Shown: positions 7,116-54,938 of the stretch, one piece after another
How positions within the stretch are numbered: position 1 is the first letter of the stretch
Layout of the letters: each line of letters begins with the position of its first letter
Assembly (NCBI GenBank): GCA_020725385.1
Contig: DYFC01000054.1
Coordinates: 58,555 to 122,554, forward strand
Direction: 5' to 3'
Source: Nitrospira japonica
GTDB taxonomy: Bacteria > Nitrospirota > Thermodesulfovibrionia > Thermodesulfovibrionales > SM23-35
DNA: 64,000 bases
Translations under genes and position numbers: made by a program
The notes under the pieces: model-generated
What the model was told of the DNA's origin: nothing
The model's database searches: none
What the model saw: only the letters and a program-made list of their open reading frames with translations

Positions 7116-7135
7116 TATAAAGGAGGGTATATATT

Positions 7136-17947: not shown

Positions 17948-17948
17948 G

Positions 17949-18353: not shown

Positions 18354-18355
18354 TT

Positions 18356-19144: not shown

Positions 19145-19153
19145 GAGGTTATA

Positions 19154-41815: not shown

Positions 41816-41817
41816 AT

Positions 41818-42210
41818 CTATTTTTCTTTCAAATAAAATGGATAAACAAGATTAAACCTGTTGTTAGTATTTCTTATTCTATAATCTATATTTATAAGAA
41901 GCTTTCCATTACTAATTTCTTTTGTGTCAATATTAATTGACATTAATTCAATTCGGGGTTCCCATGTAATAAGAGCTTCCCTTACAGTTTTTTCTATTAA
42001 TGTAATAGTAGCGGTATTAACAGAAGCAAAGACAAAATCATGGATTCCGCAACCAAAGTCAGGACGCATGACCCTTTCACCTTTTGAAGTGCTGAGAATT
42101 ATTAAAATTGCTTCTTTTATATCTTCTTCATAAGAAGACTCAGCAATCTTGCCTTCATATGTCACTTGTATAGGAAATTTCCATCCTCTGCCAAGAAAAT
42201 TCTTATCCAT
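41818..42210 (-). CDS. gpW/gp25-family baseplate protein
   Basis: FLGRGWKFP, ILSTSKGERVMRPDFGCG, WEPRI, NLVYPFY. Confidence 0.95.
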   Translation of the reverse strand: MDKNFLGRGWKFPIQVTYEGKIAESSYEEDIKEAILIILSTSKGERVMRPDFGCGIHDFVFASVNTATITLIEKTVREALITWEPRIELMSINIDTKEISNGKLLINIDYRIRNTNNRFNLVYPFYLKEK

Positions 42211-42212
42211 AT

Positions 42213-42506
42213 TTATCCTATTAACACTGTTGTACAACCAATTGAAATAGTATTTGGAGGCCCTGTTTCAATGATTGTATCTCCCTGGCGCACTGCCGGA
42301 AAATTATTAATTAATACTGTCAAACTCCCTATAGCAACTACACCACCTGCATGAGGAACTGTGCCTGATACTAAAGGACATGTATGAAAATCAATTCCAG
42401 CACGCCATGCAGGCATTCCACCAATTAAAACATTTGCGCTCCCTGGCCCTGGACCAAGTGGAGTGCCATGACTTGTCATATCGCCTACTCTTGCCGCTAA
42501 CGACAT
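42213..42506 (-). CDS. PAAR spike-tip protein
   Basis: AARVGD..HG, VLIGGMPAWR, HTCP..PH, VLINNFPAVRQGD. Confidence 0.93.
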   Translation of the reverse strand: MSLAARVGDMTSHGTPLGPGPGSANVLIGGMPAWRAGIDFHTCPLVSGTVPHAGGVVAIGSLTVLINNFPAVRQGDTIIETGPPNTISIGCTTVLIG

Positions 42507-42535
42507 ATAATCCTCCGAGTTTTCAGGGTAAGCTG

Positions 42536-43192
42536 CTAATTTATCTTCACTAGCGCTCCTTGTATTGTTAGTGTTGCTCCTGCTTTTATAGTCATCATGG
42601 AATCTGATGAAATTTCTATAATGTTTGCTTTGATCTTCAATTGCATTCTACATTCAATATTTATAGAATTCTGAACAGAATCTATAGTCATCTTATTACT
42701 GCCTGTTTTATCAACTATTTCTATTTTTTCCTGACCTGATGAATCATCTAAAAGAATTTTATGTCCTGCTTTAGTGTGTATCTCTATCTTTTCTTGAGAA
42801 GATGAATCATTATCATTAAATATAATTTCATGTCCACTCCGTGATTTTATTTTCCTTATATTATTCCCACCATCTTGATTTGATTCAGGAGGCTGAGCTG
42901 TATTATTCCAGAGCGAACCAATAACATATGGATGATTTATATCACCATGTTCAAATGCAATTAGGACTTCATCACCTGTTTCTGGAAGAAAGAAAGTCCC
43001 GCGATTACTTCCTGACATTAAAGTTGCAACACGTATCCAATCTGTTTCATTATTGTCTGAAAGCCACGGGAACCTCACTTTTACCCTTCCCAATCCATCA
43101 GGGTCCTGATTATTTGTTACTATACCCGGTGCAACACCGTACATTCTTCTTTGAGTCTCTGTGCTAATATCAAGAGCATCCAGTAGGCTCAT
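42536..43192 (-). CDS. Baseplate assembly protein V / gp5-like spike (C-terminal half of VgrG)
   Basis: VTNNQDPDGLGRVKVRFPWL, WIRV, FLPETGDEVLIAFEHGD..PYVIGSLW, SRSGH. Confidence 0.93.
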   Translation of the reverse strand: MSLLDALDISTETQRRMYGVAPGIVTNNQDPDGLGRVKVRFPWLSDNNETDWIRVATLMSGSNRGTFFLPETGDEVLIAFEHGDINHPYVIGSLWNNTAQPPESNQDGGNNIRKIKSRSGHEIIFNDNDSSSQEKIEIHTKAGHKILLDDSSGQEKIEIVDKTGSNKMTIDSVQNSINIECRMQLKIKANIIEISSDSMMTIKAGATLTIQGALVKIN

Positions 43193-44280
43193 AACGAACT
43201 CCTCCTGACTGAAAATCTGGTTCTGTAACCATTTGAACTAATAGTATGAACTGTTCCTTTTACATAGTATTTGCCGCTAAATCTTTCACCGAGTTTATCA
43301 AGCTTGATTGTAACTCCCGGCTTTATCTGAGGGATGCCAATACATTCACCCTCTCCTTCTATTAGAGAATTGCTTGCTCTATTTAATTCTGCCACTGCGA
43401 TTGAATTAGCATGTTCCTGAGAAGTTACAGGTATGTTCGTTATAACTCTCCGTATCGTACCAATTCTCTCTTCAGCTATCTGGCTTCCTGTCCGTGTACC
43501 TGGTTCATGTGTTCTTTCATTTCCTGAAGAAGCACGTCCGACAAAAGGACTTGAAGGATCAGCAGGATTATGGCCTCTAACTTCTACCTCAGTTACAAGA
43601 CCTGATGTTTTTAATGTTGGACGAAAACTGATAATATCTTTCCCAAGAGACAATGTAAGTATTTCTGTTGAGTTGTCTCTTGGATTAATAAAATATAGTG
43701 TCTGTCTCTGGACATTAAATTCATAATTAATCTCCTGTGTAAGTCTTAGAAGAAATGAGTAGTATGTCTCGGTACTATTCTTTCTTATAAAGTTTATAGT
43801 TATAGATGAATCATCAGCAACGCAAGACAACTGTGCTTCGTTTGCAATTGTCCTTGCAATATCACTATATTTTTGTCTTATGAATGTTCTTTCAGGAGAA
43901 GACCTCTTAATAAAATCATAAGACATATCCTGACCGCTTACAGTAATCTCTGGAAGTTCACCGGTAAAATAACCTGGTTCAATTGAAGTAATTTTCCCTG
44001 TGATCATTTGTTCGAGATTCCCGCTATATCCAGCCTTAATTATTATTTTGTTGCCTACATTTAATAATTCATGGTCAAGCCATTTAAATTTTTGTGTTTT
44101 CATGTCAAAGCCATCATGCAATGTCATTCTGAAGCTTGCACCTTCATCAAGTTTTTCTTCTATACTTACATCAAGAATAGATTTAGACATATCTGCATAA
44201 AGTTTTTGATTCTCTATCTCAATCTCAAAATAAGGAGCATAGAAATTTGAAGCTGTAAGAGATAATAGTTCTAATGCCAT
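43189..44280 (-). CDS. Phage late control D / gp27-like hub (N-terminal half of VgrG)
   Basis: VTEVEVRG, GEGECIGIPQIKPG, LGERFSGKYYV..VH...GYRTRF. Confidence 0.9.
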   Translation of the reverse strand: MALELLSLTASNFYAPYFEIEIENQKLYADMSKSILDVSIEEKLDEGASFRMTLHDGFDMKTQKFKWLDHELLNVGNKIIIKAGYSGNLEQMITGKITSIEPGYFTGELPEITVSGQDMSYDFIKRSSPERTFIRQKYSDIARTIANEAQLSCVADDSSITINFIRKNSTETYYSFLLRLTQEINYEFNVQRQTLYFINPRDNSTEILTLSLGKDIISFRPTLKTSGLVTEVEVRGHNPADPSSPFVGRASSGNERTHEPGTRTGSQIAEERIGTIRRVITNIPVTSQEHANSIAVAELNRASNSLIEGEGECIGIPQIKPGVTIKLDKLGERFSGKYYVKGTVHTISSNGYRTRFSVRRSSL

Positions 44281-44283
44281 AAA

Positions 44284-44952
44284 TTATTCCTTTGCTGGAA
44301 TTATAATTTCCTGTCCCGGTGATAATACCATCGGATTTTCAATTTCATTTGCATATGCAATTAATCTCCAATCTGCAGGATTACCATATTCCTTTGCAGC
44401 GATTAACCAGATGCTATCACCGCTTTTAACAATATATTTTTTAGTAATATCAGAAGAATGAAGATCAATTTCCCTAACCTGAACATCTACTTCACGGTAT
44501 TCTTTCAAAGTTACATTGAGCGTAGCTCTAACAGGAATTCCTTCCGGAAGAAACATTGTAAACCTCTTTGATACGCGTTCGATAATGCATTGGAAAATAA
44601 ATGCTCCCCATACAAAGAGACAGATAGGAGGAGCGTGCAGATCCGAGTCAATATCCATAAGTCCTTTAGTTATCCCCGGAAGATTGCTGAACATGCTGCC
44701 AGCATCCCAGCCAGTAATTCGATCTGTAAAAATTCTCACATCAATACCTTCTTCATAAGTATCAAAGAAAAGATCAAGGGTTACTGTACGTGCATTTCCT
44801 CTTACAAATTGAAAAACAGGAGAAGCAAGTCCCGGAATGTTTACTTCAGCAAATTGATTGCTTTTTTCAACACTCAATTCTTTCGGATTGAAAAGGAATG
44901 GGACTACAAGCAGTGGATTATCTTTTCTAGTAAGAAAAGCTTTTACCAACAT
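44284..44952 (-). CDS. CIS tube initiator with LysM domain (Afp7-like)
   Basis: FNPKEL, QFVRGN..TLDLFFD, HAPP.CLFVWG, G.PVRA; C-terminal LysM (YIVKSGDSIW.IA..YG..WRLIA.AN). Confidence 0.92.
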   Translation of the reverse strand: MLVKAFLTRKDNPLLVVPFLFNPKELSVEKSNQFAEVNIPGLASPVFQFVRGNARTVTLDLFFDTYEEGIDVRIFTDRITGWDAGSMFSNLPGITKGLMDIDSDLHAPPICLFVWGAFIFQCIIERVSKRFTMFLPEGIPVRATLNVTLKEYREVDVQVREIDLHSSDITKKYIVKSGDSIWLIAAKEYGNPADWRLIAYANEIENPMVLSPGQEIIIPAKE

Positions 44953-45007
44953 CTGTTATTTCCTTTATCTTGTAACTTGAGTACTTGGAAATTTGGACAC
45001 TTATGAA

Positions 45008-46084
45008 TCATGTCAGTCCTCTCCTTTCTCTTTCCAGCCTTATTCTTCTTTCAATATTTTGATAAACCTGATCAGAAATACGATTTATATCAAGATGTTG
45101 TTTTATCGCTACGCTAATATCCCTGGAAGAGTAATGATTTTTTTGTCTCATTGCCTCTTTTGTCTCAAATATAACCTTTTTGATTTCCTCAACCTCATGT
45201 TCCATCTTGCGCTGACTATGGAAATAAACATTATCAATTGTAGTCTTGTAACTGTCTATTTCCCCAAATTTTTTCCTTTCGATAGGAAATCTTCCTGTCC
45301 CCCCTTTCTCAAAGGGGAAACTATTTTTATTGTCTTTTTCTTCTTTATGAAACATGAATTTTTTGTAGGACATTTCAATTGTTTTAGGCATATAATTATG
45401 GGACATGAATTTAGTGTGAGCATCATAGTCTCTGATTCCTATATAGATAAAATTATTCGTTGACATGAGTCTTTGTAGTTGGTGAACAAAAGGAGATTGT
45501 AAAGTGTTAAGAAAAATTCCTCTTAGCCCTCCTTTCCCTATAAAACCATACGAGAATGTGTTTTCAAGAGTAGGGGTATAGTTTATAATTTTTTTCAAAA
45601 AAGGAATGCAGCGAGTACCCCCTTTTTGCAAATAGGGATAAGGTAGGATTTGGGAAAACTTAACTGTTACTGGGTTAAAAATAAGAAAAGGTTTATTATA
45701 TTTATTAAAGTAATCAAACTGCCAGATAACTAAGTTATCAGGTAAATAAGTATTTTGTTTATCTTGGTTACTTGAATTAATGTTTGTTGTTTGATAATTG
45801 GGGATTTTCCTTGCAAAATTTAATTGATTAAACATCCTTAAATAAAAATTAAAATTTAGCCTGAAGTGGTTGTTGATTAGTTCTGTGCGATAAATATTTG
45901 TTAGTTTACTTATAATATTTCTGTCAAATAATCTGAGGAAAACAAGTGCAGGAAATTTGCTTGAGTTTGTGAAAAGTTTATGCTTACCGGTAATTCTGTC
46001 ACAAAAATTTAAAATATAAAAACCAATATGCAATTTTAAAGTTTTATCATTTTTAAATAAGTTAATTTTTTTGTATAATTTCAT
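45008..46084 (-). CDS. eCIS-associated protein with conserved C-terminal helix and repeat-derived middle
   Basis: C-terminal DINRISDQVYQNIERRIRLERERRG, typical of the gene preceding LysM in eCIS loci; the remainder has atypical composition. Confidence 0.6.
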   Translation of the reverse strand: MKLYKKINLFKNDKTLKLHIGFYILNFCDRITGKHKLFTNSSKFPALVFLRLFDRNIISKLTNIYRTELINNHFRLNFNFYLRMFNQLNFARKIPNYQTTNINSSNQDKQNTYLPDNLVIWQFDYFNKYNKPFLIFNPVTVKFSQILPYPYLQKGGTRCIPFLKKIINYTPTLENTFSYGFIGKGGLRGIFLNTLQSPFVHQLQRLMSTNNFIYIGIRDYDAHTKFMSHNYMPKTIEMSYKKFMFHKEEKDNKNSFPFEKGGTGRFPIERKKFGEIDSYKTTIDNVYFHSQRKMEHEVEEIKKVIFETKEAMRQKNHYSSRDISVAIKQHLDINRISDQVYQNIERRIRLERERRGLT

Positions 46085-46145
46085 TTTTTTATTAATTCTT
46101 ATGTTTATTCTTAGTTTTTCTCTAATTTAGCTGGTTCAAAACCTC

Positions 46146-46360
46146 TTTTGATGCTCTTGTAAAAACTTCTGTGTCATTCCTGCGACAGCAGGAAAAAAGT
46201 TTCTTCACATATTGTTACATACAAGTCTATCCAACTTAGGATTCTTTTCCTTAATCATCTGTAACTTTTAATCCCTTTTCGACTTCTTTATTTGTTTTTC
46301 ATATTTTTCTGGATTCCCGCTTTCGCGGGAATGACATATATAATTCTTTCTACCATCAAA
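46146..46360. repeat. MITE/REP-like composite palindromic element
   Basis: Outer tttgatg...catcaaa ends. Inner inverted units are gtcattcctgcgacagcaggaa (46173) and ctggattcccgctttcgcgggaatgaca (46309-46336). Confidence 0.7.
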
Positions 46361-46411
46361 GTAACAGTTCTTCTACTTGTTCAGTAACTTTTAGGAGATG
46401 AACCTTATTAT

Positions 46412-47725
46412 TTAAGTAGTAGTTACCCGCCTTCCAAACACATTAATATCCCGACAAAGATCAGGGGTTCCGCTACCTGCTCCATAACAAGAAGCCTCAC
46501 AAGAAGCTGGCAAACCTTCACTGTATACTCCTCTTGTAAGGTGAACAATTTCATGTAAGATTGTTGACGCCAGAGGCTGACATCCCGGAGAAGAATCTGG
46601 ATGAGTAGGAAAAGACCGACTTCCAATTGTCATTATGTTCGCGGGAATAGAATAACCAGTAGCTTCAGCACAGGCACCGCCAATTACAGCCGAACGCCTG
46701 CAGCGAATATCTAATCCATGTCTAATAAGATTTCTTTGTATTCTGGAACGCCGAGATTCTTCAATACAGTCTGTATTAAAAATCTTATCCAAAGCATCCC
46801 GTGTAGCCATTTCAGCTGTTGCAAACCCAAAATCAGATGGCGAGCAACTACGCCGAACAACAACACTAACTCCTTCTGCTGTGAACCTATAATCTTCAGA
46901 TACAGACCCGCCACCATCTCCTTGTAATTGAATCCTTGTCATATTTATATTTGTGAACCCACTCTGTTGAACAACATGTGTTAACTCATGTGCTAATAGT
47001 TTCTTGCCCTGTGTTGTAGTCGGACTATATCTTCCTGCATTGAAAAATATATCCCTCCCAATAGTAAATGCTTCGGCATTCAACTCATTTGATTTCTTTG
47101 AAGCATATGAGTCTGTATGAAGTCTTACGTGGTTGAAGTCATATCCAAATCTGTTTTCCATGAATGAACGAGTATTGTCATCAAGCCTTTGGCCTGAACC
47201 CTTTTTCGACATTATCTCACCAATCTGTGCTTGCTCATTATTAATAGACGCCGAATTGCCAACCAAGTCAGAACTGCTAAGGTTTAATAGTTGGCCACTT
47301 GGCGATTTAAAAGCTTGACTCCTTTTTTCCATTTTCATTATACTAACTGATACCCTTTCTGCCTCCTCTTCAGCTTTACAACCTGGACAACTGCCACCGC
47401 AGGAACACTTACGGCTTATAGCTAATGGCTTATTGCTTATAGCTGGTTCATGATTGCCTAATGATGACTGACTTAACAGACTTGCAGTAAAATTATTCCC
47501 GTAATTTTTCTGCATAAATGACATTGCACAAGATTCTTTACCTAAAGACTTTGCCTGAGATAGAGCTAAATTCAGACCTTCAGATGATATGTGAGGACTC
47601 CTTAACCTGTGGCATATCCCGCAAGAATTACAGGAATTTGCCTCTATGTTCTTATTTAGTTTTTTGAGAGCAGTATGGTTTATTTTAGCCTTATCGTTTC
47701 TCTCTATCAGAATTCTCTCTTTCAA
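46412..47725 (-). CDS. DUF4157 (eCIS core) protein with C-terminal Cys-rich HExxH domain; putative cargo
   Basis: MQKNYGN, RKCSCGGSCPGC, MENRFGYDFNHVRLHTD..AEAFTIG..LLAHELTHVVQQ, then STILHEIVH...E..CEASC. Confidence 0.85.
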   Translation of the reverse strand: MKERILIERNDKAKINHTALKKLNKNIEANSCNSCGICHRLRSPHISSEGLNLALSQAKSLGKESCAMSFMQKNYGNNFTASLLSQSSLGNHEPAISNKPLAISRKCSCGGSCPGCKAEEEAERVSVSIMKMEKRSQAFKSPSGQLLNLSSSDLVGNSASINNEQAQIGEIMSKKGSGQRLDDNTRSFMENRFGYDFNHVRLHTDSYASKKSNELNAEAFTIGRDIFFNAGRYSPTTTQGKKLLAHELTHVVQQSGFTNINMTRIQLQGDGGGSVSEDYRFTAEGVSVVVRRSCSPSDFGFATAEMATRDALDKIFNTDCIEESRRSRIQRNLIRHGLDIRCRRSAVIGGACAEATGYSIPANIMTIGSRSFPTHPDSSPGCQPLASTILHEIVHLTRGVYSEGLPASCEASCYGAGSGTPDLCRDINVFGRRVTTT

Positions 47726-47779
47726 CTTAAAATCCTCCTTTGCTACTTGGCTACTCAGTATTTTTTAACTTCTTTTTTA

Positions 47780-47862
47780 CTCTATGCTCTCTGCTCTAAG
47801 CTCTATGCTTACAAACTTGGCATCTTGACAACTTGGTTACTCGGAGTCTTGGTTACTTATTT
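47780..47862. repeat. Intergenic 7-mer and 8-mer degenerate tandem repeats
   Basis: ctctatg ctctctg ctctaag ctctatg, then acttggca tcttgaca acttggtt actcggag tcttggtt. Confidence 0.65.
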
Positions 47863-47868
47863 CTACGG

Positions 47869-48303
47869 TTACTCTTTACTAATCCCATGATGTACAATCT
47901 CAATTGTTTCAAATGCTATTGAGCTGCTTTCAGCTTTTAAATCTGGGCCTGACCATTTCACCGGATATGCCTGAACAAAATTCCATCTCCATTTGTCATT
48001 TCCCGCAGAATCAATTAAGATGATAGAACCATTTTTCCTTTTAAATCTTCCAGAAACTACATCTTGATACCATTTCCATAATTCATCAGAATCCGTTAAT
48101 CCACGTTTCAATATTAAATGCTGATATTTTGTTCTTTTTGGAAAATAATGAACATAATCGTTAACTCCACCTTCCTCAATTGCTTCTGTTTCTGTTTCAA
48201 TCTGAAGACCTGAAACATCTGAGAAATAAGCGCTTATGATTCCATTTATTTCAATCCTAAATCTAAACGCTGTAAAGGGATATTTTTTTTCACCAACAGG
48301 CAT
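47869..48303 (-). CDS. Tail tube protein 2 (T4 gp19-like)
   Basis: FRFRIEI, SGL, EGGVN, LKRG, W.F..AYPVKWSGP.L.A...AFETIEIVH. Confidence 0.95.
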   Translation of the reverse strand: MPVGEKKYPFTAFRFRIEINGIISAYFSDVSGLQIETETEAIEEGGVNDYVHYFPKRTKYQHLILKRGLTDSDELWKWYQDVVSGRFKRKNGSIILIDSAGNDKWRWNFVQAYPVKWSGPDLKAESSSIAFETIEIVHHGISKE

Positions 48304-48308
48304 TTATT

Positions 48309-48491
48309 TTATCCTTCCAAAATACTCTTCTTTTCCTCACCACTTATCTTACTGTTTATTTTTGATATTTCCTCGCACCACCTTTGTCTTTCTCTATGTT
48401 CCATGTTCATTATATCTTCATGTTGCCAGTGAAAATGATATGCAATAAAGGCTACCTCCTCATAGATTCTATCGAGGGGGTAGCCTATCAT
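48309..48491 (-). CDS. DUF6760 / P2 gpE'-like small protein (probable -1 frameshift extension of the tail chaperone)
   Basis: YEEVAFIAYHFHW...IMNMEHRERQRW; lies in the -1 frame of the upstream gene with an ATGA overlap. Confidence 0.8.
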   Translation of the reverse strand: MIGYPLDRIYEEVAFIAYHFHWQHEDIMNMEHRERQRWCEEISKINSKISGEEKKSILEG

Positions 48492-48853
48492 TCCCCCGAC
48501 TTTTGTATTTCCACCTCAAATTGATGTTCACATTTTGGACATACTACTTTAATGCCCGAAGCTCCGTTGCTGTTGATTCTGTTATAAAGCTCCTGAAGAT
48601 AAGACAGATCTGATGTAAAGAGATTTTCAATTACCTTTGGATTAATTACATCTAATGTCCCAAGTTTCTTAATAACTCTTGATAGTACTATTATCGAAAG
48701 ATATGCTGGATTTGCTTGCACTCTTGGGTCTTTCATTGGCAGTATCTCATCTGCTGCTGTTGCAAGTCTCATTAGACCATTTTTATGGAGATTTCCTTCC
48801 TCATCAATATATCCTTTTGGAAGCATGAATTCAAATTCTGTTTGAAAAGCCAT
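48488..48853 (-). CDS. Tail assembly chaperone
   Basis: FQTEFEF.LPKGYID..G.LH..G.MRLATAADEI.P..DPRV...DL.YLQ.LY..IN...CPKC; follows the tube gene; GGAGGG RBS fits the ATG at 48853. Confidence 0.85.
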   Translation of the reverse strand: MAFQTEFEFMLPKGYIDEEGNLHKNGLMRLATAADEILPMKDPRVQANPAYLSIIVLSRVIKKLGTLDVINPKVIENLFTSDLSYLQELYNRINSNGASGIKVVCPKCEHQFEVEIQKSGE

Positions 48854-48885
48854 TAACATCCCTCCGTATATTTATATTCTTCAAA

Positions 48886-49329
48886 TTATGAAACCCTCTG
48901 TATACCCTCATGAACAATTTCAAGAGTTTCAATCGCTACATCATTACCTTTAGCGGTAAAGTCAGGAGCATCATATTTTGTAGGCCATGCCTGAATAATA
49001 TTCCACCTTGCCTTGTCACTTCCTACTTCATCAACGAGTATGATGGAAATATTTTTCCTTGCTCCATCTGCTCCTGTATCTATAACCTGCTTCCTCCAGT
49101 TGTATAAATCCATAGAATCAGTAATTCCCCATTTAAGTGTTATATTTGAGTATTTTGTTAGCCCTGAAAGTTTTCTAACAGTTGTCGGGTCAGTTCCTTC
49201 CCTATATTCAATAGGATCTGTAGTGGTATCACCAATAGTGCATTCACTGAATCCTGCTTGGGTGATACCATCAATTTCAACTCTAAATCTAAAATTTCTA
49301 TAAGGGTCTTTTCTTTGCCCAACCGCCAT
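48886..49329 (-). CDS. Major tail tube protein (T4 gp19-like)
   Basis: DPYRNFRFRVEIDG, YREG, ITLKWG, AWPTKY.APDF.A.GNDVAIETLEIVHEG. Confidence 0.96.
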   Translation of the reverse strand: MAVGQRKDPYRNFRFRVEIDGITQAGFSECTIGDTTTDPIEYREGTDPTTVRKLSGLTKYSNITLKWGITDSMDLYNWRKQVIDTGADGARKNISIILVDEVGSDKARWNIIQAWPTKYDAPDFTAKGNDVAIETLEIVHEGIQRVS

Positions 49330-49421
49330 ATATACCTCCTCTTTTAAGTAACAATACTGTTAACAATCCATTATTTATTTGCTTCATTTATGTGTTATTA
49401 CGATTCCCAATTTCCTCATTT

Positions 49422-49475
49422 TCAACCGTATAAACTGTGTAAACCTTGTAAACTATGTAAACTGTGTAAACTTAT
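49422..49475. repeat. 9-mer tandem repeat between sheath and tube genes
   Basis: tcaaccgta taaactgtg taaaccttg taaactatg taaactgtg taaacttat. Confidence 0.8.
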
Positions 49476-51506
49476 TTATTCGGTTATTGCTGAACCACCT
49501 GCCCATTGAGCAATTCGGAATATTACAAATTCTGCTGGTTTCACAGGCGCTACTCCAATAACACAGATAAGCCTGCCATTATCTATATCATCCTGTGTCA
49601 TAGTTGTTCTGTCACATTTTACAAAGAAAGCTTCTTCAGCTTTTGTTCCCATAAGAGCACCTTCCCGCCACACCCTTGTGAGAAATTCTGTTATAGTAGC
49701 CCTCACTCTTGCCCACAGCTTTTCATTATTAGGCTCAAAAACAACCCATTGGGTTCCTTCATCAATAGATTCTTCAAGATAGAGAAAAAGACGTCTTACA
49801 TTTATATACTTCCAGAGGGAATTTGATGAACATGTACGGGCTCCCCATACTCTTATGCCTCGTCCTGGAAACGCACGTATAAGATTGATGCCCGCTGGAT
49901 TTAATATATCTTGCTCACCTTTATTTAATTGATATTTAAGATCAACAACACCTGAGAGTTTTTCATTTGCTGGAGCTTTATGGACTCCTCTTGCTTGGTC
50001 GCTTCTTGCATAAATTCCCATTACTGCTCCTGATGGTGGAATAAATATATCTTTCTTTTCCAATGAGTCATAAACTTTTATCCAGGGATGATACAATGCA
50101 GCATATGAAGTATCAATAAGATTTCTGTGAGCTTGTAAATCAGATACTTTCTGAGCATTTTCCTGCATATCAAGAACTGCAAATCTATCTTTAAGGTTCT
50201 CACAATGAGCTATCAAAGCAAGCTGGACATTTATATCAGTTATACCTGGCGCTGCAATAATATTTACTTCATCAATATCTTTAAATGCTTCAATCCCAGA
50301 ACGTTTGCCCGGCCCATTATCAAGTCCCTTAAAGTCAGATGCAGTAAGCCCGGAAATAGTTCCATCACTTCCGTTTGCTAGTTTAATATAAAGTTTTCCA
50401 TTTATAAGATCATTGTTTGTTGGCATATCAAATGGGTCTGTACGGGTATAATCTGCTGAGGCAGAATAAGGTGATTTAAGAGTTATTAATGATGAACGAT
50501 TATTGACAACTTTAATAAAATAATTTGATGCATCAGGATTCATTGAGAGATAATTAAATGTTTCCACGTCATTTTTATAAATTACCTGAAGATCAAACTC
50601 ACATGTTGAAATTGTTTTTATCGGAGGTGCTGATGTATCAATAACTCCTGCATCTCCAGTAAGATGAGAGGAAAGTGTAATTATATCGTCTTGAATTGAA
50701 GTAATTTTTCTATATTGTTTGTTTGAACCATTATCATAGACAATGATTGCTCCTTTATAAAATCCGTTTTTATTCTTTATCTTGTAACGCGTAGAAGTTG
50801 CTGCATCTCCTATAACTTCTATTATCTGTGTCTTTGCCTGAGAAGATGGCATACTGCGTATAATAATATCTTCTCCCCAGTCACCTTTGTTTATTGCAAA
50901 AATATCAAGTGTCTTAGATGCAGCTGATGCTCCTCCTGCAAGTGTTGAAACAATTACACGGGTAGAATTTTTTGGATAGTTGCTGCCAATGGGGTTGCTC
51001 AATGTTACTGAATTTGATGAGTTGTTGTAAGAAGATATTGTTAAACCTGAATGTGATGATTCTACAGAGCCATCAGCTCTTAACTTTTCAAGACTAAGAC
51101 TGCTTGTTGTATCAATACCATGAAGTGATTCAAGCTTTAATACTGTATCTCCATTATTACAATCTTCAGTAAGTTGTGTAATTACGCCGCAATTTATAGA
51201 CATGTTTTTTGCTTCCAAAGCATCTGATGGCAGCACTCTTAGAACATAACACCTGCTTCCGCCATTCATAAAAAAACTCTCAACAGCATAAGGAAGAAAA
51301 CGATAATTGCTATAGCTTTCAGGTAAATATGAACCAAACTTTCTTTGAAATTCACCAAAACTCGTTATGAGTTCTGGCAACCCTTCTGCTGGCCCTTTTT
51401 CTGCAACACCAAGAAAACCTGCTGTACTTGTACTAACGCCTTCAATTGGCTTTGCGCCGATCTCTATTTCCTCAATATATACACCCGGTGATAAATACTC
51501 TGGCAT
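49476..51506 (-). CDS. Contractile tail sheath protein
   Basis: MPEYLSPGVYIEE, PPSG..G..AR.D..RGVHKAPAN, VWGART, YINVRRL, WVVFEPN, APVKPAEFVIFRI. Confidence 0.98.
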   Translation of the reverse strand: MPEYLSPGVYIEEIEIGAKPIEGVSTSTAGFLGVAEKGPAEGLPELITSFGEFQRKFGSYLPESYSNYRFLPYAVESFFMNGGSRCYVLRVLPSDALEAKNMSINCGVITQLTEDCNNGDTVLKLESLHGIDTTSSLSLEKLRADGSVESSHSGLTISSYNNSSNSVTLSNPIGSNYPKNSTRVIVSTLAGGASAASKTLDIFAINKGDWGEDIIIRSMPSSQAKTQIIEVIGDAATSTRYKIKNKNGFYKGAIIVYDNGSNKQYRKITSIQDDIITLSSHLTGDAGVIDTSAPPIKTISTCEFDLQVIYKNDVETFNYLSMNPDASNYFIKVVNNRSSLITLKSPYSASADYTRTDPFDMPTNNDLINGKLYIKLANGSDGTISGLTASDFKGLDNGPGKRSGIEAFKDIDEVNIIAAPGITDINVQLALIAHCENLKDRFAVLDMQENAQKVSDLQAHRNLIDTSYAALYHPWIKVYDSLEKKDIFIPPSGAVMGIYARSDQARGVHKAPANEKLSGVVDLKYQLNKGEQDILNPAGINLIRAFPGRGIRVWGARTCSSNSLWKYINVRRLFLYLEESIDEGTQWVVFEPNNEKLWARVRATITEFLTRVWREGALMGTKAEEAFFVKCDRTTMTQDDIDNGRLICVIGVAPVKPAEFVIFRIAQWAGGSAITE

Positions 51507-51575
51507 TTTTCCCTCCTTTTAAAATTTGTTCTAATAAATTTAATAATGTTTACATTGAGAAAGAAGAGTTATTTT

Positions 51576-52145
51576 CTATGGGAATGGTATAACCCCTATA
51601 GAAACCGTTCTTCTCTCAAGAACATCGGCAGAGATTACTTTTGTATCACCGCCTTTCTGTATATTTATTTGTATATGCTCATTTTTAATATCCTTAAAAT
51701 AAAGAGCAAATTCACCTCTTTCATCTGTCATAGTCTCAATTTGTTTACTTATAACCTTAATTGATGCATTTTCAATAGGACCTGCTATGCCGGTAACTAT
51801 ACCTCTTATTAATGTTGCATTTTCAGGAAAAGGATATGCTGGATTAGGAATTAAATTTATAGTTACTACAGGGTTTTTCGGGTCAAGAGAAGATATATCA
51901 ATTTGTTTATTAACTGGGAAAAATATTTCACTATCAATCGCTACTAAATAGTTATCTTCTTTAATATCTGTAAAAATAAAATAACCGCTTGGATTTTTAT
52001 AAGCTATTTTGTTATTTTCTGGTATTGACACTCTAATTGAATTAAGAACCATTTCACCAGTGAAGCTATCAGTAACCCGTAAAGCTATAGATAGTTTAGT
52101 AATTAAACTATCAGTTATATAGAAATTATCTATCGTTGGGTTCAT
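51576..52145 (-). CDS. Carboxypeptidase-regulatory-like (beta-sandwich) eCIS accessory protein
   Basis: L.PNPAYPFP..ATLIRG.V, TDERGEF; lies between DUF4255 and the sheath gene. Confidence 0.7.
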   Translation of the reverse strand: MNPTIDNFYITDSLITKLSIALRVTDSFTGEMVLNSIRVSIPENNKIAYKNPSGYFIFTDIKEDNYLVAIDSEIFFPVNKQIDISSLDPKNPVVTINLIPNPAYPFPENATLIRGIVTGIAGPIENASIKVISKQIETMTDERGEFALYFKDIKNEHIQINIQKGGDTKVISADVLERRTVSIGVIPFP

Positions 52146-52149
52146 AGAT

Positions 52150-52743
52150 TTATCCGCTGTTCCTTTTTGAAATTAGATGTCCATTATCTATTTCTTTAGA
52201 AATAACACGTTGCATACTCATTTCAATTGATGAATCTATAAGCACAGGAGTCACCATATAACTAATTGATAGTTTGTAAGGCACATCCTGAAAAGTACCC
52301 CATAACTTTGTAAGATCATCAATCGAAAGTGGATTGAAAATAATCTTAATTTCATTATTGCTACCCGAGAGGCTACCCTGAAGAACACTACCAGATAGTA
52401 CAGGGTTGTTGAAAAATACCTGCATTACTTTTCCAAGAATATATTTTTCCTGTGCAGGGTCATTGCTATATGTAGTAACAAGATAGAAAAGCTCAAGAAA
52501 TAAAGGAGGTTGAAGCACTCTGTTACTATCTATTATCTGCATCTTTTCATTTTTTAAAAAAATGTTTTCAGTAATTTGATAAAGAAAAATCAATACTTTA
52601 TTTGGATTGCCTGACTCGTTAATTATTTCTTTTGGTGATTTAAGGCTTATCATTGGTTTCGGACTTATGCCAGTCCATGGATCATCTTCCAGCAACTTCT
52701 GCAAGGTTTCGCTCACATCTCCTATAACTGTATAATTACTCAT
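52150..52743 (-). CDS. DUF4255 / Pvc16-Afp16 cap-terminator protein
   Basis: IFLYQITEN..LKN, PPL.LEL.YLVT, LGKVMQVF, LW......YKLSISY.V.PV.I. Confidence 0.9.
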   Translation of the reverse strand: MSNYTVIGDVSETLQKLLEDDPWTGISPKPMISLKSPKEIINESGNPNKVLIFLYQITENIFLKNEKMQIIDSNRVLQPPLFLELFYLVTTYSNDPAQEKYILGKVMQVFFNNPVLSGSVLQGSLSGSNNEIKIIFNPLSIDDLTKLWGTFQDVPYKLSISYMVTPVLIDSSIEMSMQRVISKEIDNGHLISKRNSG

Positions 52744-54938
52744 TGGCATCCCATCTCAAGCATTTCATAATATTCTCCAAAATCATTTTTAAGACATAAT
52801 TTCCCTATTTTTTCATATTCCATTTTTACAGCATTTATAAGATGAAAGATATTGATTTCTTTATTTTCAGATGCTGCAAGAAAAGCAGCATTAGTGGCAA
52901 CATTTCTTATATTGCCTCCTGAGAGCTTGAATTGACGGGCAAGAAAATTAAAATCTATGTCACTATTTAAAGGAGTATTTTCAGGAAATATAGAAAGCCA
53001 TATATCTTTTCTCATGGTTTCATCAGGATAAGGAAAATCTACAATATAATGCATTCTTCTTACGAATGCATCATCTATATTGCTTCTGAGATTTGTTGCA
53101 AGTATAACTATGCCGTTATACTCTTCGATTTTTTGTAAAAGATAAGCGATCTCTATATTTGCATAACGATCGTGTGCATCTTTTACTTCAGAACGTTTCC
53201 CGAAAAGGGCATCTGCTTCATCAAAAAAAAGTATAACATTGCTATTTCCTGCTGCTGTAAATATTTTGTCAAGATTTTTTTCTGTTTCACCTATATATTT
53301 ACTTACTATTCTTGAAAGGTCTATTCTGAAAATATCAATATTTAGTTCTTTTGCGATTATCTGGGCAGCCATTGTTTTGCCAGTGCCGGATGAACCTGAA
53401 AAGAGTACATTCAACCCATTTCCCATAGAAAATTTTTTCCCGAGACCCCACTCGCCAAGAACTTTATGCCTGAATTTCACATAATTACATATATTGCGCA
53501 ACACATTTTTTTTATCAGGAGGCAGAATAATATCGTTCCATGAATATGTGTAATCTAATTTTCTGGCAAGATAATTTAATTCTGAATCAGAATAAAGACG
53601 GCATGCATTATATATATCTTCAGGTTCAATTTGATTATTTCCATGTTGCCATAAGGCTAAATTACGGGCTGTTTCCAGAGCAATCTTTATCCTTCCCTCT
53701 GTAAAATGAAATTTGGAAGCTATTTCTTCTATATAATTAGAATTAATATTTCTACGGGTTCCGTTTAAATAAGTCTCCCATATATTTTTTCTTTCAAGAT
53801 CATCAAATTCAGGGAATTCAATATCTATAAATGAAAAATTATCTATAAAGGATGCATTATTGCATGGTTTTTTACTTAGGATAAAAGTTAATTTTGAGAA
53901 TGTCTTTAATGAATCTATTAAATAAAATATCATTGAAGCTTTTTCATTGTTTTCTGTTAAAGCTTCAATATTATCAATACATAGTGCTCCTTGTTGTAAA
54001 ATACATTCTCTTCCAAGAATCCATGAAAGTTCACCAAAACTAATAGGTTCTGTAATGAGTCTTTCAATATCAGAATATAAAACAGGAATCCTGAGGCTAT
54101 TACATATCCTTCTTACAGTGGTTTTTCTTCCTGAACCTTTCTTTCCATGAAAATAGAAAACGAGGTTTTTATTTGTTGGGTTTTGCTTACTAAAGTATCC
54201 GTCGACAAAATTAATAGTTTTTTGAATAAGACAATCTTGAAAATGGTCTTTGTGATAATTATTTTTACTTGTCAGATATTTAACAGATCTACCGAGTCTA
54301 ATATCTATAATATTTAAGCCTAACAAAAAAGAAGTAATACGCTCATCTAATTTTGTTGATTTTGAAAGAAGAGAACCAGGATTATCAGAAGATGTATCAT
54401 ATAATTGAATTAATCTGAATTTGCTTAAAGGAGCAGAGTGAAAAAAAGAAGAAAGGTGCAAGAGTCTTTCTTTATCTGAAGAAAATAAAAGATTTAAAAT
54501 CAGGTTAACAGTAGGTTTTTTAATAGTAATATCATCCTGTATGTACGCAAATAACTTTTCATATTTTTTATTCAATTCAGGAGCAAGGCAGATTAAAATA
54601 CACTTTTCTTCAAAATTATTCAGATGGAATAAACTTGAAAGATGTGGTAGTGAAAGATAGATTCCTTTGTTTAAACTAATTTTTTTACGGCTATCGATAA
54701 TTGTTTTAAGTTTCTTAACTTCCTGAAGTAAATCTGCTATTTCTTCATCTTCATTCCTTTCCAAAGAAAAATTTAGAAGGTTATTAATCTCTCCGTCTTC
54801 AATAACAAGACCCTTTAAATTGTTTCTGGTTGTATCATAAAGTTTCTGCTGTCTTAAGATATTGGTTTTTATAACCAAATCAAGCCATTTAAGTTCATCT
54901 GATAAATGCTCATAACTATCGGTATATGCTTCCTGCAT
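52740..54938 (-). CDS. eCIS AAA+ ATPase (Afp15/Pvc15-like)
   Basis: LAPEL..KYEKLFAYIQDD; Walker A GSSGTGKT; VSKYIGETEKNL; FFDEADALFGKRSEVKDAHDRYAN. Confidence 0.95.
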   Translation of the reverse strand: MQEAYTDSYEHLSDELKWLDLVIKTNILRQQKLYDTTRNNLKGLVIEDGEINNLLNFSLERNEDEEIADLLQEVKKLKTIIDSRKKISLNKGIYLSLPHLSSLFHLNNFEEKCILICLAPELNKKYEKLFAYIQDDITIKKPTVNLILNLLFSSDKERLLHLSSFFHSAPLSKFRLIQLYDTSSDNPGSLLSKSTKLDERITSFLLGLNIIDIRLGRSVKYLTSKNNYHKDHFQDCLIQKTINFVDGYFSKQNPTNKNLVFYFHGKKGSGRKTTVRRICNSLRIPVLYSDIERLITEPISFGELSWILGRECILQQGALCIDNIEALTENNEKASMIFYLIDSLKTFSKLTFILSKKPCNNASFIDNFSFIDIEFPEFDDLERKNIWETYLNGTRRNINSNYIEEIASKFHFTEGRIKIALETARNLALWQHGNNQIEPEDIYNACRLYSDSELNYLARKLDYTYSWNDIILPPDKKNVLRNICNYVKFRHKVLGEWGLGKKFSMGNGLNVLFSGSSGTGKTMAAQIIAKELNIDIFRIDLSRIVSKYIGETEKNLDKIFTAAGNSNVILFFDEADALFGKRSEVKDAHDRYANIEIAYLLQKIEEYNGIVILATNLRSNIDDAFVRRMHYIVDFPYPDETMRKDIWLSIFPENTPLNSDIDFNFLARQFKLSGGNIRNVATNAAFLAASENKEINIFHLINAVKMEYEKIGKLCLKNDFGEYYEMLEMGCQ

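Follow-up and report, generated by a model that had tools for sequence, protein, structure and literature searches.

Tail chaperones made by frameshifting are known from phages, as the gpG/gpGT pair of lambda, the E/E+E' pair of P2 and the gp41/FS-gp41 pair of Mu. The shift takes place on the heptamer G GGA AAG in lambda and on T TTT TTG in P2. In the dnaX gene of E. coli, a slippery heptamer is combined with a downstream stem-loop and an upstream SD-like element. The dnaX gene (tau/gamma) is described as a case of -1 frameshifting (PMC4344849), and the -1 frameshift of lambda yields gpG and gpGT in a ratio of 30:1 (Atkins et al. 2016, PMC5009743, citing Levin 1993; Xu, Hendrix & Duda 2004, 2013, 2014). 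T4 is stated, in a passage of the same review, to be without a G-T frameshift (PMC5009743). In Mu, the tape measure gp42 directly follows the chaperone (PMC11915804). 'Mu-gp41-like' ORFs have been noted in PLTS clusters (Sarris et al. 2014, PMC4122934), and the setting of eCIS particle length and the start of tube polymerisation are described as poorly understood (bioRxiv 10.64898/2026.05.27.728243).

Judging from its DNA, a phage-tail-like injection machine of a sulfate-reducing bacterium appears to make a longer second form of its chaperone by a programmed -1 ribosome slip. The locus belongs to an eCIS/PLTS cluster (Afp/PVC-like, with a lineage II type gene order) located at positions 38612-54938 of the window, i.e. 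the whole stretch of 64,000 nucleotides that was analysed. Pfam matches were obtained for nine components: sheath, gp19-type tube, LysM tube initiator, VgrG-type spike, PAAR, gp25, baseplate J, Pvc16-type cap and AAA+ ATPase. The genes follow each other in the order sheath, tube, tail assembly chaperone (TAC), DUF6760 and tube, and those around the junction are:

48886..49329, minus strand: tube protein gene 1 (gp19/Afp1-like; Phage_T4_gp19, E 1.5e-48), directly upstream of the TAC gene
48488..48853, minus strand: TAC gene, 0 frame, 121 aa plus TGA
48309-48491, minus strand: DUF6760 ORF in the annotated style, with its own ATG (48491-48489) and a predicted 60-aa product
47869..48303, minus strand: tube protein gene 2 (Afp5-like; Phage_T4_gp19, E 2.1e-45), directly downstream of DUF6760

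This junction was compared in a set of 81 loci, made up of the window and the best 80 of 589 confirmed genome-contig matches obtained with the 12 closest TAC sequences as query; the set covers at least 13 phyla and includes 8 archaeal loci. A tube gene ends at most 600 nt upstream of the TAC stop in 64/80 loci, and tube gene 2 is found within 200 nt downstream in 41/80. We consider, with a probability of roughly 0.8, that the chaperone and the DUF6760 ORF form a single -1 recoding unit giving a 181-aa fusion.

The TAC-bearing ORF (48488-48859, minus strand) ends with TCG (48499-97), GGG (48496-94), GAA (48493-91) and TGA (48490-88). The TAC homologues begin with MAFQTEFEF, which places the real start at the second ATG (48853, 121 aa), with GGAGGG 6 nt before it; translation probably does not begin at the in-frame ATG further upstream, at 48859. 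The elements of the junction are as follows:

48498..48515, minus strand: -1 frame already open upstream of the heptamer (it opens at 48515), with no conserved coding there
48491..48497, minus strand: putative shift site G GGG GAA, 0-frame GGG GAA after the G of TCG
48487..48490, minus strand: spacer TGAT, 4 nt from heptamer to stem, containing the 0-frame stop TGA
48309..48494, minus strand: -1-frame segment read after the predicted shift, i.e. the DUF6760 domain (GGA, ATG...GGA, TAA; 61 codons plus stop)
48449..48486, minus strand: predicted stimulatory hairpin of 38 nt, inside codons 2-14 of the DUF6760 frame

The preliminary description of this DNA had read the chaperone end as TCG GGG GAA TGA with G GGG GAA at 48497-48491, a strong hairpin 4 nt further at 48486-48449, and a DUF6760-like ORF in the -1 frame lacking a properly spaced SD, and all of these readings were confirmed on the minus strand. 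The hairpin has an MFE of -26.8 kcal/mol. The DUF6760 ORF is in the -1 frame since its ATG, at 48491, overlaps the TAC stop as ATGA, and it matches Pfam PF20546 (67.1 bits for a cut-off of 27, E 1.5e-18, residues 7-53). GGGGGA stands directly 5' of this ATG with zero spacer, so that an SD at proper spacing is missing. The heptamer G GGG GAA is near-canonical and not of the strict X XXY YYZ type, since re-pairing of GAA with GGA involves a G.U in the middle position. The spacer amounts to 5 nt without the terminal A-U pair and to 7-8 nt when measured from the GGG codon; its 4-5 nt are at the short end of the usual range, and the heptamer-spacer-stem geometry is invariant in an ungapped alignment of 58 G-run sequences. 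An SD-like GAGGTG is present 14 nt 5' of the heptamer.

The ATGA overlap of the window is the classic arrangement of translational coupling, so that a frameshift is not logically required at this locus alone, and likewise at 14 other loci of the set and at 7 of 12 DUF6760-carrying plasmid loci, where a start codon also occurs at the junction. With plain coupling, ribosomes would stop at TGA and reinitiate at the overlapping ATG, giving separate 121-aa and 60-aa proteins, the hairpin would hide the start, and the G-run would be a vestigial SD or Gly codons. The public annotation of TAC and DUF6760 as two separate CDSs agrees with this, as does the extended fold of the window, which pairs the AUG region, a hairpin over a start codon being suited to coupling too. 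The wider comparison, however, makes coupling on its own unlikely. In 81/81 loci, the DUF6760 ORF is read in the -1 frame and overlaps the stop codon of the TAC gene, and the same holds for 12/16 further, more distant plasmid loci, DUF6760 being absent in the other four. In 48/81 loci, among them L006 (Methanosarcina sp. DH2) and L089 (Kitasatospora), the stretch from the preceding -1-frame stop to the conserved Tyr-Pro contains no ATG, GTG or TTG, and yet the ORF is retained in both frame and sequence. Start candidates are found only at least 42 nt upstream, within the TAC coding sequence, in 18/81 loci, and a start codon at most 21 nt from the Tyr codon in 15/81, window included. Fourteen of these 15 (again with the window) have it at the two positions after the trans-frame Gly-Gly, or at the next one, the first of these positions being one of I, V or M; the fifteenth, L075, is atypical in that its ATG comes after an insertion. 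The window ATG thus sits where others have I, V or M, with ATA as the most frequent codon among relatives, and, on this alignment, is probably incidental. The G-run abuts the ATG, which makes it unusable as an SD, one clade has T TTT TTG or A AAT TTT in its place, without SD character, and the signal is common to archaeal and bacterial loci. Termination-reinitiation at ATG 48491 may still supply some free 60-aa DUF6760 beside the frameshifted fusion.

The opening point of the -1 frame ranges among loci from -15 to below -500 nt. Public annotations start DUF6760 at ATA (Nostoc), at CTG (Kitasatospora, S. cadmiisoli) or at a truncating internal TTG (Rhodococcus), and some public records hold no DUF6760 CDS, an absence that weighs less in PLSDB, whose gene tables are incomplete.

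The slippery site is conserved at the chaperone-DUF6760 junctions as a G-run in 58/81 loci, the others having mostly different slippery motifs. In these 58 loci, the distance from an in-frame G GGG G to the conserved Tyr codon downstream is exactly 15 nt (GGGGGAA in 30, GGGGGGG in 10, GGGGGGA in 9, GGGGGAG in 8 and GGGGGCG in 1), with the strict X XXY YYZ form G GGG GGN in 19/58. G GGG G was found at -18 in two further loci and G GGG TAA in two. The remaining 19/81 loci have T- or A-run sites, which are T TTT TTG/A or A AAT TTT in 18 of them, at -27 to -33 in 17; L075 has its site far upstream, before its insertion, and L017 has T TTT TCA only. Two haloarchaeal plasmids carry G GGA AAT/C. Over the 159,158 codon positions in long ORFs of the same loci that served as background, in-frame G GGG G occurred at 165 (0.10%) and any strict X XXY YYZ at 0.46%. 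Against this 0.10%, the occupation of one fixed position in 58/81 junctions places the G-run arrangement, on sequence counts, beyond chance. The -1 frame of L055 becomes open with the first G of the run, and in 28/58 G-run loci the 0-frame stop comes directly after the heptamer, which would confine the shift to these 7 nt. We rejected a view of the T/A-heptamer loci as several independent replacements, as they lie on one side of a single branch in a tree built on the TAC N-terminal 100 residues; according to this tree, the class is one Bacillota clade and counts as one independent replacement.

Homopolymer runs at the shift sites also raise the question of transcriptional slippage, in which RNA polymerase would add or drop a base in the G5 or T6 run and some mRNAs would encode the fusion in frame, with a nearly identical protein product. 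Runs of 5-7 G or 6 T fall short of the lengths known to make polymerases slip efficiently, the motifs A AAT TTT and G GGA AAY are of the ribosomal type and not homopolymers, and a selected hairpin at a fixed 4-8 nt downstream suits a ribosomal stimulator but has no role for a polymerase. Slippage of this kind is thus very unlikely, and a ribosomal -1 shift remains the preferred reading.

The predicted hairpin of the window has the layout AGGCTACC.CCTC.ATAG-aat-CTAT GAGG.GGTAGCCT, with an outer stem of 8 bp (AGGCUACC/GGUAGCCU), 1-nt bulges and inner stems of 4+4 bp. Its MFE compares with -15.4 +/- 2.9 kcal/mol for 200 dinucleotide shuffles (z -3.97, 0/200 as stable), and z falls to -7.1 when 200 synonymous recodings of this peptide serve as the reference. 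Over the 58 G-class loci, with 200 such recodings made for each locus, the median z was -3.78, with values below -2 in 52/58 loci and zero of 200 recodings as stable in 37/58; for the non-G class (n=22), it was -0.58. T-run loci displayed no consistent downstream structure (z -2.76 to +1.97, below -2 in only 2/18). A search of the hairpin with Rfam 15 covariance models returned only rli36, on the other strand (E 0.97, 19.4 bits for a gathering score of 50), and no match at gathering score was obtained across the whole window.

The stem arms lie within conserved codons (G-E of the chaperone C-terminus, G-Y-P and E-E-V-A of DUF6760), and ATA, ATC, ATT or CTG occurs near the junction in many loci. 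Hairpin and G-run could on these grounds be mere by-products of conserved residues, with DUF6760 starting at non-canonical codons and no recoding signal at all. This explanation is scarcely credible given that synonymous recodings of the same peptides fold far worse and that synonymous codons in the stem are nearly fixed, contrary to local usage: Val is GTA in 53/53 cases (8.2 expected), Gly GGC in 33/33 (10.7), Pro CCC in 55/57 (13.6) and Glu GAG in 58/58 (28.9). The codon before Tyr is NGC in 57/58 G-class loci (GTG in L016), so that GC is retained despite an amino acid varying between G, S, R and C. In Streptomycetaceae, the hairpin is kept with different residues, 5/6 loci folding it at the same place from another sequence (GUACGCGG/CCGCGUAC), and the stem of NBC_01426 presents a G-C to A-U compensation. 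Moreover, some loci (e.g. L022, L036, L044, L059, L077, L031, L072) have none of the seven start-type codons checked.

Pairing in the stem reached 89.8% of cells versus 85.3% in shuffles (0/500 as high) and fell to 33-59% when the partners were slid by 1-3 columns, and 27 double-change cells were counted versus 11.5 in shuffles (0/500 as high). Compensatory changes are thus seen beside the synonymous-site constraint, but covariation is modest, with double changes in only 5/13 pairs of these related sequences and two of five covariation measures not above shuffles (181/500 and 274/500). These comparisons indicate that the hairpin is under selection and accompanies the G-run.

The chaperone itself matches PHROG phrog_508 'tail assembly chaperone' (E 3.4e-7), and its relatives are named 'phage tail assembly protein' or 'FluMu gp41' in their sources. 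Its AlphaFold model (pLDDT 85.7) resembles Mu FS-gp41 (P0DJY4; Foldseek E 6.7e-4, probability 1.00, TMq 0.51), one of the 8 BFVD matches at E <= 1e-3, of which the best are T4-like 'baseplate hub assembly protein' entries (E 7.5e-8 to 2.8e-5, TMq 0.64-0.67). The kinship to known tail assembly chaperones is remote. Pfam TAC models were reached below threshold only (Phage_TAC_7 in 5/31, Gp41_Mu in 3/31), tblastn of TAC and DUF6760 against 50,697 phage records gave no match, and neither protein had a match in the PDB by sequence profile. The TAC family carries a C-terminal CPxC zinc-ribbon-like motif. The DUF6760 model consists of three helices (pLDDT 87.2), and DUF6760 members match phage families phrog_10636 in 41/80 loci and phrog_1756 'tail protein' in 17/80. 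By fold, no match at E <= 0.001 was obtained for DUF6760 in BFVD or PDB: the best BFVD match was an uncharacterised 55-aa myovirus protein (E 0.03, TMq 0.77), 'Tail assembly chaperone' entries appeared only at E 0.55-2.6, and nothing in the PDB was below E 3.8. The likeness of the modelled DUF6760 fold to phage tail entries is thus suggestive at most.

Natural in-frame TAC-DUF6760 fusions are rare, with one (P0263) among the 28 longer representatives scanned. Other candidates were rejected, namely the long top matches P0001 and P0003, which are tandem chaperone duplications, four of the 28 longer representatives, which contain RtcB, CIS_tube/LysM, ABC permease and N_BRCA1_IG domains and look chimeric, and P0182 and P0133, which look like out-of-frame read-through.

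In the proposed mechanism, most ribosomes would make the 121-aa chaperone and stop at TGA. Some would slip back one base on G GGG GAA (48497-48491), with GGG in either the P or the A site, helped by the 38-nt hairpin located 4-5 nt downstream, which would resist unwinding during the slip, and would read on in the -1 frame to give the 181-aa chaperone-DUF6760 fusion. A slip with GGG, before GAA is decoded, would create the junction peptide ...QKSGGMIGYPLDR, and a tandem slip incorporating Glu the junction peptide ...QKSGEMIGYPLDR. If the pair works like lambda gpG/gpGT, P2 E/E+E' and Mu gp41/FS-gp41, the common N-terminal domain would coat a tape-measure-like protein, tube subunits would be recruited by the three-helix DUF6760 domain at the C-terminus, and the efficiency of the slip would set the ratio of short and long forms. 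This scheme builds on the -1 arrangement, the missing starts, the conserved or replaced slippery sites, the hairpin under selection and a fold remotely like that of FS-gp41, from which we infer the production of the fusion, its ratio to the short form and its binding partners. The preliminary proposal that this eCIS retains a -1 frameshift of the G/GT or E/E+E' type is supported by the frame in 81/81 loci, the lack of a start in 48/81, the slippery motifs and the stem constraint, and the comparison of loci speaks equally for its idea of the small ORF as the C-terminus of a fusion of ~180 aa, predicted here at 181 aa. Literature searches found no description of such a 181-aa chaperone-DUF6760 fusion.

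The second tube gene, the DUF4157 gene and then a candidate tape-measure-like ORF lie downstream of the TAC-DUF6760 pair:

46412..47725, minus strand: eCIS_core (DUF4157) gene, 437 aa (Pfam PF13699, E 1.2e-33)
45008..46084, minus strand: 358-aa ORF, candidate tape-measure-like, positioned before the LysM tube initiator

The former has a phmmer match within 2.5 kb downstream in only 2/80 loci. The latter has no family in Pfam, NCBIfam or PHROG, and only short, weak repeats were found in 44900-46500; its C-terminal ~40-60 residues match a large ORF after tube 2 in 6/80 loci. From its sequence and position, it is an uncertain candidate for a tape-measure-like gene. One or other of these two genes had been proposed earlier for the tape-measure role. 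The C-terminus common to 6/80 loci and the naming of Streptomyces DUF4157 proteins as tape-measure-related (PMC11126660) lend partial support to this idea; a second tube gene is placed between the chaperone pair and these genes.

Should the frameshift prove real, the actual product would be the fusion of ~180 aa and separate DUF6760 records would be wrong. Engineered eCIS constructs would then have to retain the chaperone-DUF6760 part intact, including the overlap. A G/GT-like chaperone pair would provide a concrete, testable model of eCIS assembly, and would tie lineage-II eCIS/PLTS tails to Mu/P2-type chaperones although other parts of the machine are T4-like. It would also be a case of -1 shifting that is conserved, stimulated by RNA structure and based on an unusual G-rich heptamer, in bacterial and archaeal hosts, with natural variants available for comparison (T-run sites without hairpin, a rebuilt hairpin in Streptomyces). 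A bolder reading, to which we give even odds, is that G GGG GAR and a ~13-bp hairpin 4-5 nt downstream form a portable cassette that shifts frame in Bacteria and Archaea (Methanosarcinales, ANME-2, Hydrothermarchaeota) and moves horizontally with eCIS clusters. No cellular -1 frameshift signal known in archaea would then be as widespread as this cassette, and eCIS would build their tubes along a tape measure in the way of lambda G/GT, DUF6760 playing the part of the 'T' domain that recruits the tube. What is annotated as a 'DUF6760 family protein' would in that case, thousands of times, be the C-terminus of a fusion and not a gene.

The eCIS pair resembles lambda G/GT in having two overlapping ORFs beside a tube gene, the second one in the -1 frame and mostly without its own start, and G GGA AAT/C of the haloarchaeal relatives is near the lambda site G GGA AAG. 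In contrast to lambda, the eCIS pair belongs to an injection machine that is not a phage and has a contractile tail, its shift site G GGG GAA is followed by a strong and conserved hairpin, and between the pair and the tape-measure-like gene lie a second tube gene and, in the window, a DUF4157 gene. The lambda frameshift is not known to need such a hairpin, and no sequence similarity of the eCIS pair to lambda G/GT was detected. Mu gp41/FS-gp41 and P2 gpE/gpE+E' likewise come from contractile-tail systems. Product sizes are like those of Mu (121/181 aa here, 188 aa for FS-gp41, P0DJY4), and the Bacillota clade uses T TTT TTG, the site of P2. Differences from Mu are the Pfam matches to Gp41_Mu and Phage_TAC_7 below threshold only, the lack of a tblastn phage match and the second tube gene placed before the candidate tape-measure-like ORF; the CPxC zinc-ribbon-like motif and the DUF6760 domain, specific to the eCIS chaperone family, set it apart from both Mu and P2. 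As in dnaX, the shift would be cellular and non-viral, with a hairpin a few nt downstream of the heptamer as stimulator and, in the window, the upstream SD-like GAGGTG, whose role is putative; the dnaX shift truncates the protein, whereas the eCIS shift would add a domain, and the heptamers differ. The best TAC fold matches and the rest of the eCIS cluster (gp19, gp25, gp5/27) are T4-like, but the T4-like baseplate hub assembly proteins are twice as long as the eCIS TAC (~260-270 aa, BFVD). Taken together, these comparisons of sequence and gene order support the eCIS chaperone pair as a further case of the known frameshift-made tail chaperones of phages.

A complete phage-tail-like contractile injection system (eCIS/PLTS) cluster lies on the minus strand at 38.6-55 kb of the window, which has a G+C content of 34.5%. 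Its genes, in order, and the regions cited for host-type genes are as follows.

Minus strand, first part: AAA+ ATPase, Pvc16-type cap, CarboxypepD_reg-like protein, sheath, gp19-type tube
Minus strand, middle: 121-aa protein without Pfam family (48488-48853), 60-aa DUF6760 protein (48309-48491), second tube
Minus strand, next: eCIS_core (DUF4157) protein, 358-aa ORF without family, LysM tube initiator
Minus strand, last part: gpD and gpV spike parts, PAAR, gp25, baseplate J
2375-4633, 5676-8314 and 16343-20341: regions cited for host-type genes

Because BamA, DsrAB, DsrK and DsrP are also encoded in the window, the host is a diderm sulfate reducer, yet the nearest relatives of the 121-aa chaperone by tree path (48488-48853 compared with related loci L001-L007) are archaeal (Hydrothermarchaeota, Methanosarcinales, ANME-2, Methanosarcina), a pattern suggesting that eCIS clusters have moved between bacteria and methane-cycling archaea.

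The preliminary description had proposed a -1 frameshift from the chaperone gene into DUF6760, and re-reading of the window found all its sequence statements on this junction to be correct. The 121-aa gene ends in TCG GGG GAA TGA (48499-48488, minus strand), and the ATG within the ATGA overlap (48491, minus strand) is the first codon of the DUF6760 ORF, which is hence in the -1 frame. A properly spaced SD is absent: GGGGGA directly abuts the ATG at 48491 and is therefore unusable as such. The hairpin at 48486-48449 (minus strand) has an MFE of -26.8 kcal/mol versus -15.4 ± 2.9 in dinucleotide shuffles (z -3.97, 0/200 as stable). Any ATGA overlap necessarily puts the downstream ORF in the -1 frame, and a hairpin that covers the start codon suits translational coupling too, in which the DUF6760 start is reached via the overlap. 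Since the window alone is thus compatible with both readings, relatives were compared. An SD-like GAGGTG at 48512-48517 (minus strand), 14 nt 5' of the heptamer G GGG GAA, encodes part of a conserved F-E-V-E; its distance to the heptamer is not constant across loci (L001 and L003 have 8 nt), and by analogy it is conceivable as a dnaX-like upstream stimulator of the putative shift.

Scanning one genome per species confirmed 589 loci; the best 80 (at least 13 phyla; 8 archaeal) were kept, and the window makes 81. All evidence for the frameshift is comparative, from these 80 closest loci and 16 plasmid loci. In 81/81 loci DUF6760 is encoded by a -1-frame ORF that runs across the chaperone stop, and, apart from L075 with its insertion, homology sets in no more than a few codons away from this stop. 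ATG, GTG and TTG are wholly absent from the preceding -1-frame stop to the conserved Tyr-Pro in 48/81 loci, which argues against coupling as the general explanation; in 18 others the sole start candidates lie at least 42 nt upstream, within chaperone codons. The window is one of the minority of 15 loci with a start codon within 21 nt of the Tyr codon. At the residue of the window ATG, relatives encode I, V or M (trans-frame G-G-[I/V/M]-x-G-Y-P), so this ATG is an Ile/Val-to-Met variant. As the conserved DUF6760 segment mostly lacks a start codon, it must be reached from the upstream frame. Taken together, these comparisons support -1 recoding into DUF6760, and free DUF6760 may be made from the window ATG as well.

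Locus L075 (2845-3180, Anaerotruncus) keeps T TTT TTG, followed by a ~140-nt insertion before the DUF6760 domain, and has an ATG 9 nt before the Tyr codon; it may be evolving towards independent DUF6760 initiation. Public annotations of DUF6760 use an ATA start in Nostoc (L083, 2866) and CTG starts in Kitasatospora (L089, 1169) and S. cadmiisoli (L090, 1160), and in Rhodococcus (L084, 1181) an internal TTG start that removes the conserved N-terminus. The Brasilonema DUF6760 CDS (L095, 1157-1300) is absent from the PLSDB table, itself incomplete.

Conservation of the slippery run was borne out: an in-frame G GGG G precedes the Tyr codon by exactly 15 nt in 58/81 loci (G class), with the heptamers GGGGGAA (30), GGGGGGG (10), GGGGGGA (9), GGGGGAG (8) and GGGGGCG (1), against a background of 165 in 159,158 codon positions in long ORFs of the same loci. 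Of the others, two have G GGG G at -18, and another two G GGG TAA. T- or A-run sites occur in the remaining 19 loci, which are all Bacillota: T TTT TTG, T TTT TTA or A AAT TTT in 18, with the site 27-33 nt ahead of the Tyr codon in 17 and far upstream, before the insertion, in L075, while L017 has only T TTT TCA. A tree of the first 100 chaperone residues places all 19 together on one side of one branch (SH-aLRT 81), which points to a single replacement, after which the sites turned over further within this group. The first G of the run is where the -1 frame opens in L055, and a 0-frame stop directly follows the heptamer in 28/58 G-class loci; a shift site common to the loci must therefore be the heptamer itself.

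The hairpin was compared in each locus with 200 peptide-keeping recodings of the 51-nt segment, drawn from the locus's own codon usage. Median z was -3.78 in the 58 G-class loci (z < -2 in 52, and 0/200 recodings as stable as native in 37) and -0.58 in the 22 other loci; the window had z -7.1. The T-run loci displayed no consistent downstream structure (z < -2 in 2/18). On this sequence evidence, the hairpin accompanies the G-run. Codon choice within the stem was strongly biased relative to expectation from local usage: Val was GTA in 53/53 (8.2 expected), Gly GGC in 33/33 (10.7), Pro CCC in 55/57 (13.6) and Glu GAG in 58/58 (28.9). The codon before Tyr was NGC in 57/58 loci though encoding Gly, Ser, Arg or Cys (GTG in L016).

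The expected covariation was found in part. In an ungapped alignment of the 58 sequences, 89.8% of cells were paired versus 85.3% in shuffles (0/500 as high), sliding the partners lowered pairing to 33-59%, and double-change cells numbered 27 versus 11.5 (0/500), at pairs 21-46 (C-G 53, U-A 4), 27-40 (C-G 25, G-C 11) and 16-51. Two of the five measures were not above shuffles and the sequences are related, so that covariation alone is moderate evidence. No Rfam family matches the hairpin.

Sixteen of 46 annotated, more distant plasmid records were also compared. G GGG G is kept in 10/16 (five Streptomyces, Kitasatospora, Rhodococcus, Nostoc, Burkholderia, Brasilonema). In five of six Streptomycetaceae loci a hairpin recurs at an unchanged distance, built of other residues and bases (GUACGCGG/CCGCGUAC), one with a G-C to A-U exchange; z < -2 in only 3/6, in a G+C-rich context; Streptomyces sp. 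YIM 121038 (L094) is without hairpin. At the junctions of L082, L088, L089, L090 and L096, G GGG GAA is kept and the hairpin codons differ (T-Y-A ... A-Y). DUF6760 was not found in two Deinococcus, Pseudanabaena and Treponema plasmids. In the former two (L091 1194-1357, L092 1181-1360), a different small Pro/Ala-rich ORF, ending in ...VTRRVYALxLEDL, follows the chaperone via an ATGA overlap, and no slippery motif is present at this junction. Two haloarchaeal loci have G GGA AAT/C plus an ATG; their chaperones (L081 3005-3022, L085 1299-1316) bear a ~55-aa acidic tail and end in ...G GGA AAT/C CCA GCC GAA TGA. This heptamer is lambda-like and lies 9 nt before the ATGA overlap, and no hairpin was detected there (z +1.2 and +1.4). 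These two loci may use frameshifting, coupling or both.

Under the recoding reading, most ribosomes would complete the 121-aa chaperone and a fraction would slip -1 on G GGG GAA, with the stem, 4-5 nt past the heptamer, at the mRNA entrance. Slipped ribosomes would read GGA (or retain Glu), ATG, ATA, GGC and on to 48312, giving 181 aa; the slip could occur with GGG in the P site or with GGG in the A site, models that differ in the junction peptide they predict. If lambda is a guide (PMC5009743, in part), short and long forms would coat the tape measure via their shared domain, and the extra domain of the long form would bring in tube subunits.

The 121-aa protein is very widespread: 7,996 of 8,000 scored candidates in a word-indexed search had E <= 1e-3, with 53-92% identity among the 120 matches listed, as did 1,235 representatives in a 50%-identity library. 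Source names include 'phage tail assembly protein' and 'phage FluMu protein gp41'; the protein matches PHROG 508 'tail assembly chaperone' (E 3.4e-7), and Pfam Phage_TAC_7 and Gp41_Mu were matched below threshold in 5/31 and 3/31 members. DUF6760 members match phrog_10636 in 41/80 and phrog_1756 'tail protein' in 17/80; the DUF6760 model is a three-helix domain (pLDDT 87.2), for which fold searches gave no match at E <= 0.001. A natural in-frame chaperone-DUF6760 fusion (P0263, 1/28 longer representatives scanned) indicates that both parts can function within a single chain.

Only one conserved CPxC occurs in the chaperone C-terminus (residues 105-111, 48521-48541), and together with the two short strands after it looks like one half of a zinc ribbon (conservation of C105, P106 and C108 >= 90%; Zn_ribbon_4 below threshold in 10/31 members); the fusion P0263 lacks the CPxC. 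Several relatives (P0001, P0003, P0121-P0127) carry tandem duplications of the chaperone domain in single chains of 210-417 aa, with 2-3 matched stretches.

The suggestion that the DUF4157 or the 45008 gene takes the tape-measure role is plausible and unproven. In 6/80 loci the large ORF after the second tube gene is matched by the last 40-60 residues of the 358-aa ORF, DUF4157 matched in only 2/80 (2.5 kb downstream compared), a Streptomyces DUF4157 protein upstream of baseplate genes has been called tape-measure-related (PMC11126660, in part), and afp14 homologues are generally absent from lineage II (Chen et al., PMC6899500, in part); the plausibility comes from these points. The low-complexity 358-aa ORF (45008-46411 region) is conserved at its C-terminus alone, and between it and the DUF4157 gene lies a 327-nt ORF-free gap containing a 23-nt inverted repeat (46172-46194 / 46314-46336, 87% complementary).

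Our literature search, with subscription journals and supplements outside it, found no description of a chaperone frameshift in contractile injection systems and no mention of 'DUF6760'. Among the papers listed as joining frameshift and contractile injection, titles and abstracts held nothing on tail-chaperone frameshifting, and two of these papers use the word in another sense. 'Mu-gp41-like' ORFs (Sarris 2014, PMC4122934, in part) and unexplained lineage-II genes (Chen 2019, PMC6899500, in part) had been noted; the word 'frameshift' is absent from both papers, and from the AlgoCIS preprint and the S. davawensis paper.

The AlphaFold model of the chaperone (31 sequences, pLDDT 85.7, m7239294b0b2d) has 8 BFVD matches at E <= 1e-3. 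These include P0DJY4 'Probable tail assembly protein FS-gp41', Mu's own frameshift product (E 6.7e-4), and, scoring better and as the best fold matches, several 'baseplate hub assembly proteins' of T4-like type, ~260-270 aa long (E 7.5e-8 to 2.8e-5). T4 is said to lack the G-T frameshift; these matches hint that it retains a related domain within a longer protein. Frameshifting of the -1 kind in tail chaperone genes is textbook knowledge on long-tailed phages, among them archaeal viruses; T4 is the stated exception (PMC5009743, in part). The apparent coupling of a G-rich near-canonical heptamer to a selected hairpin, and the probable use of the shift signal in both bacterial and archaeal hosts, would be unusual traits.
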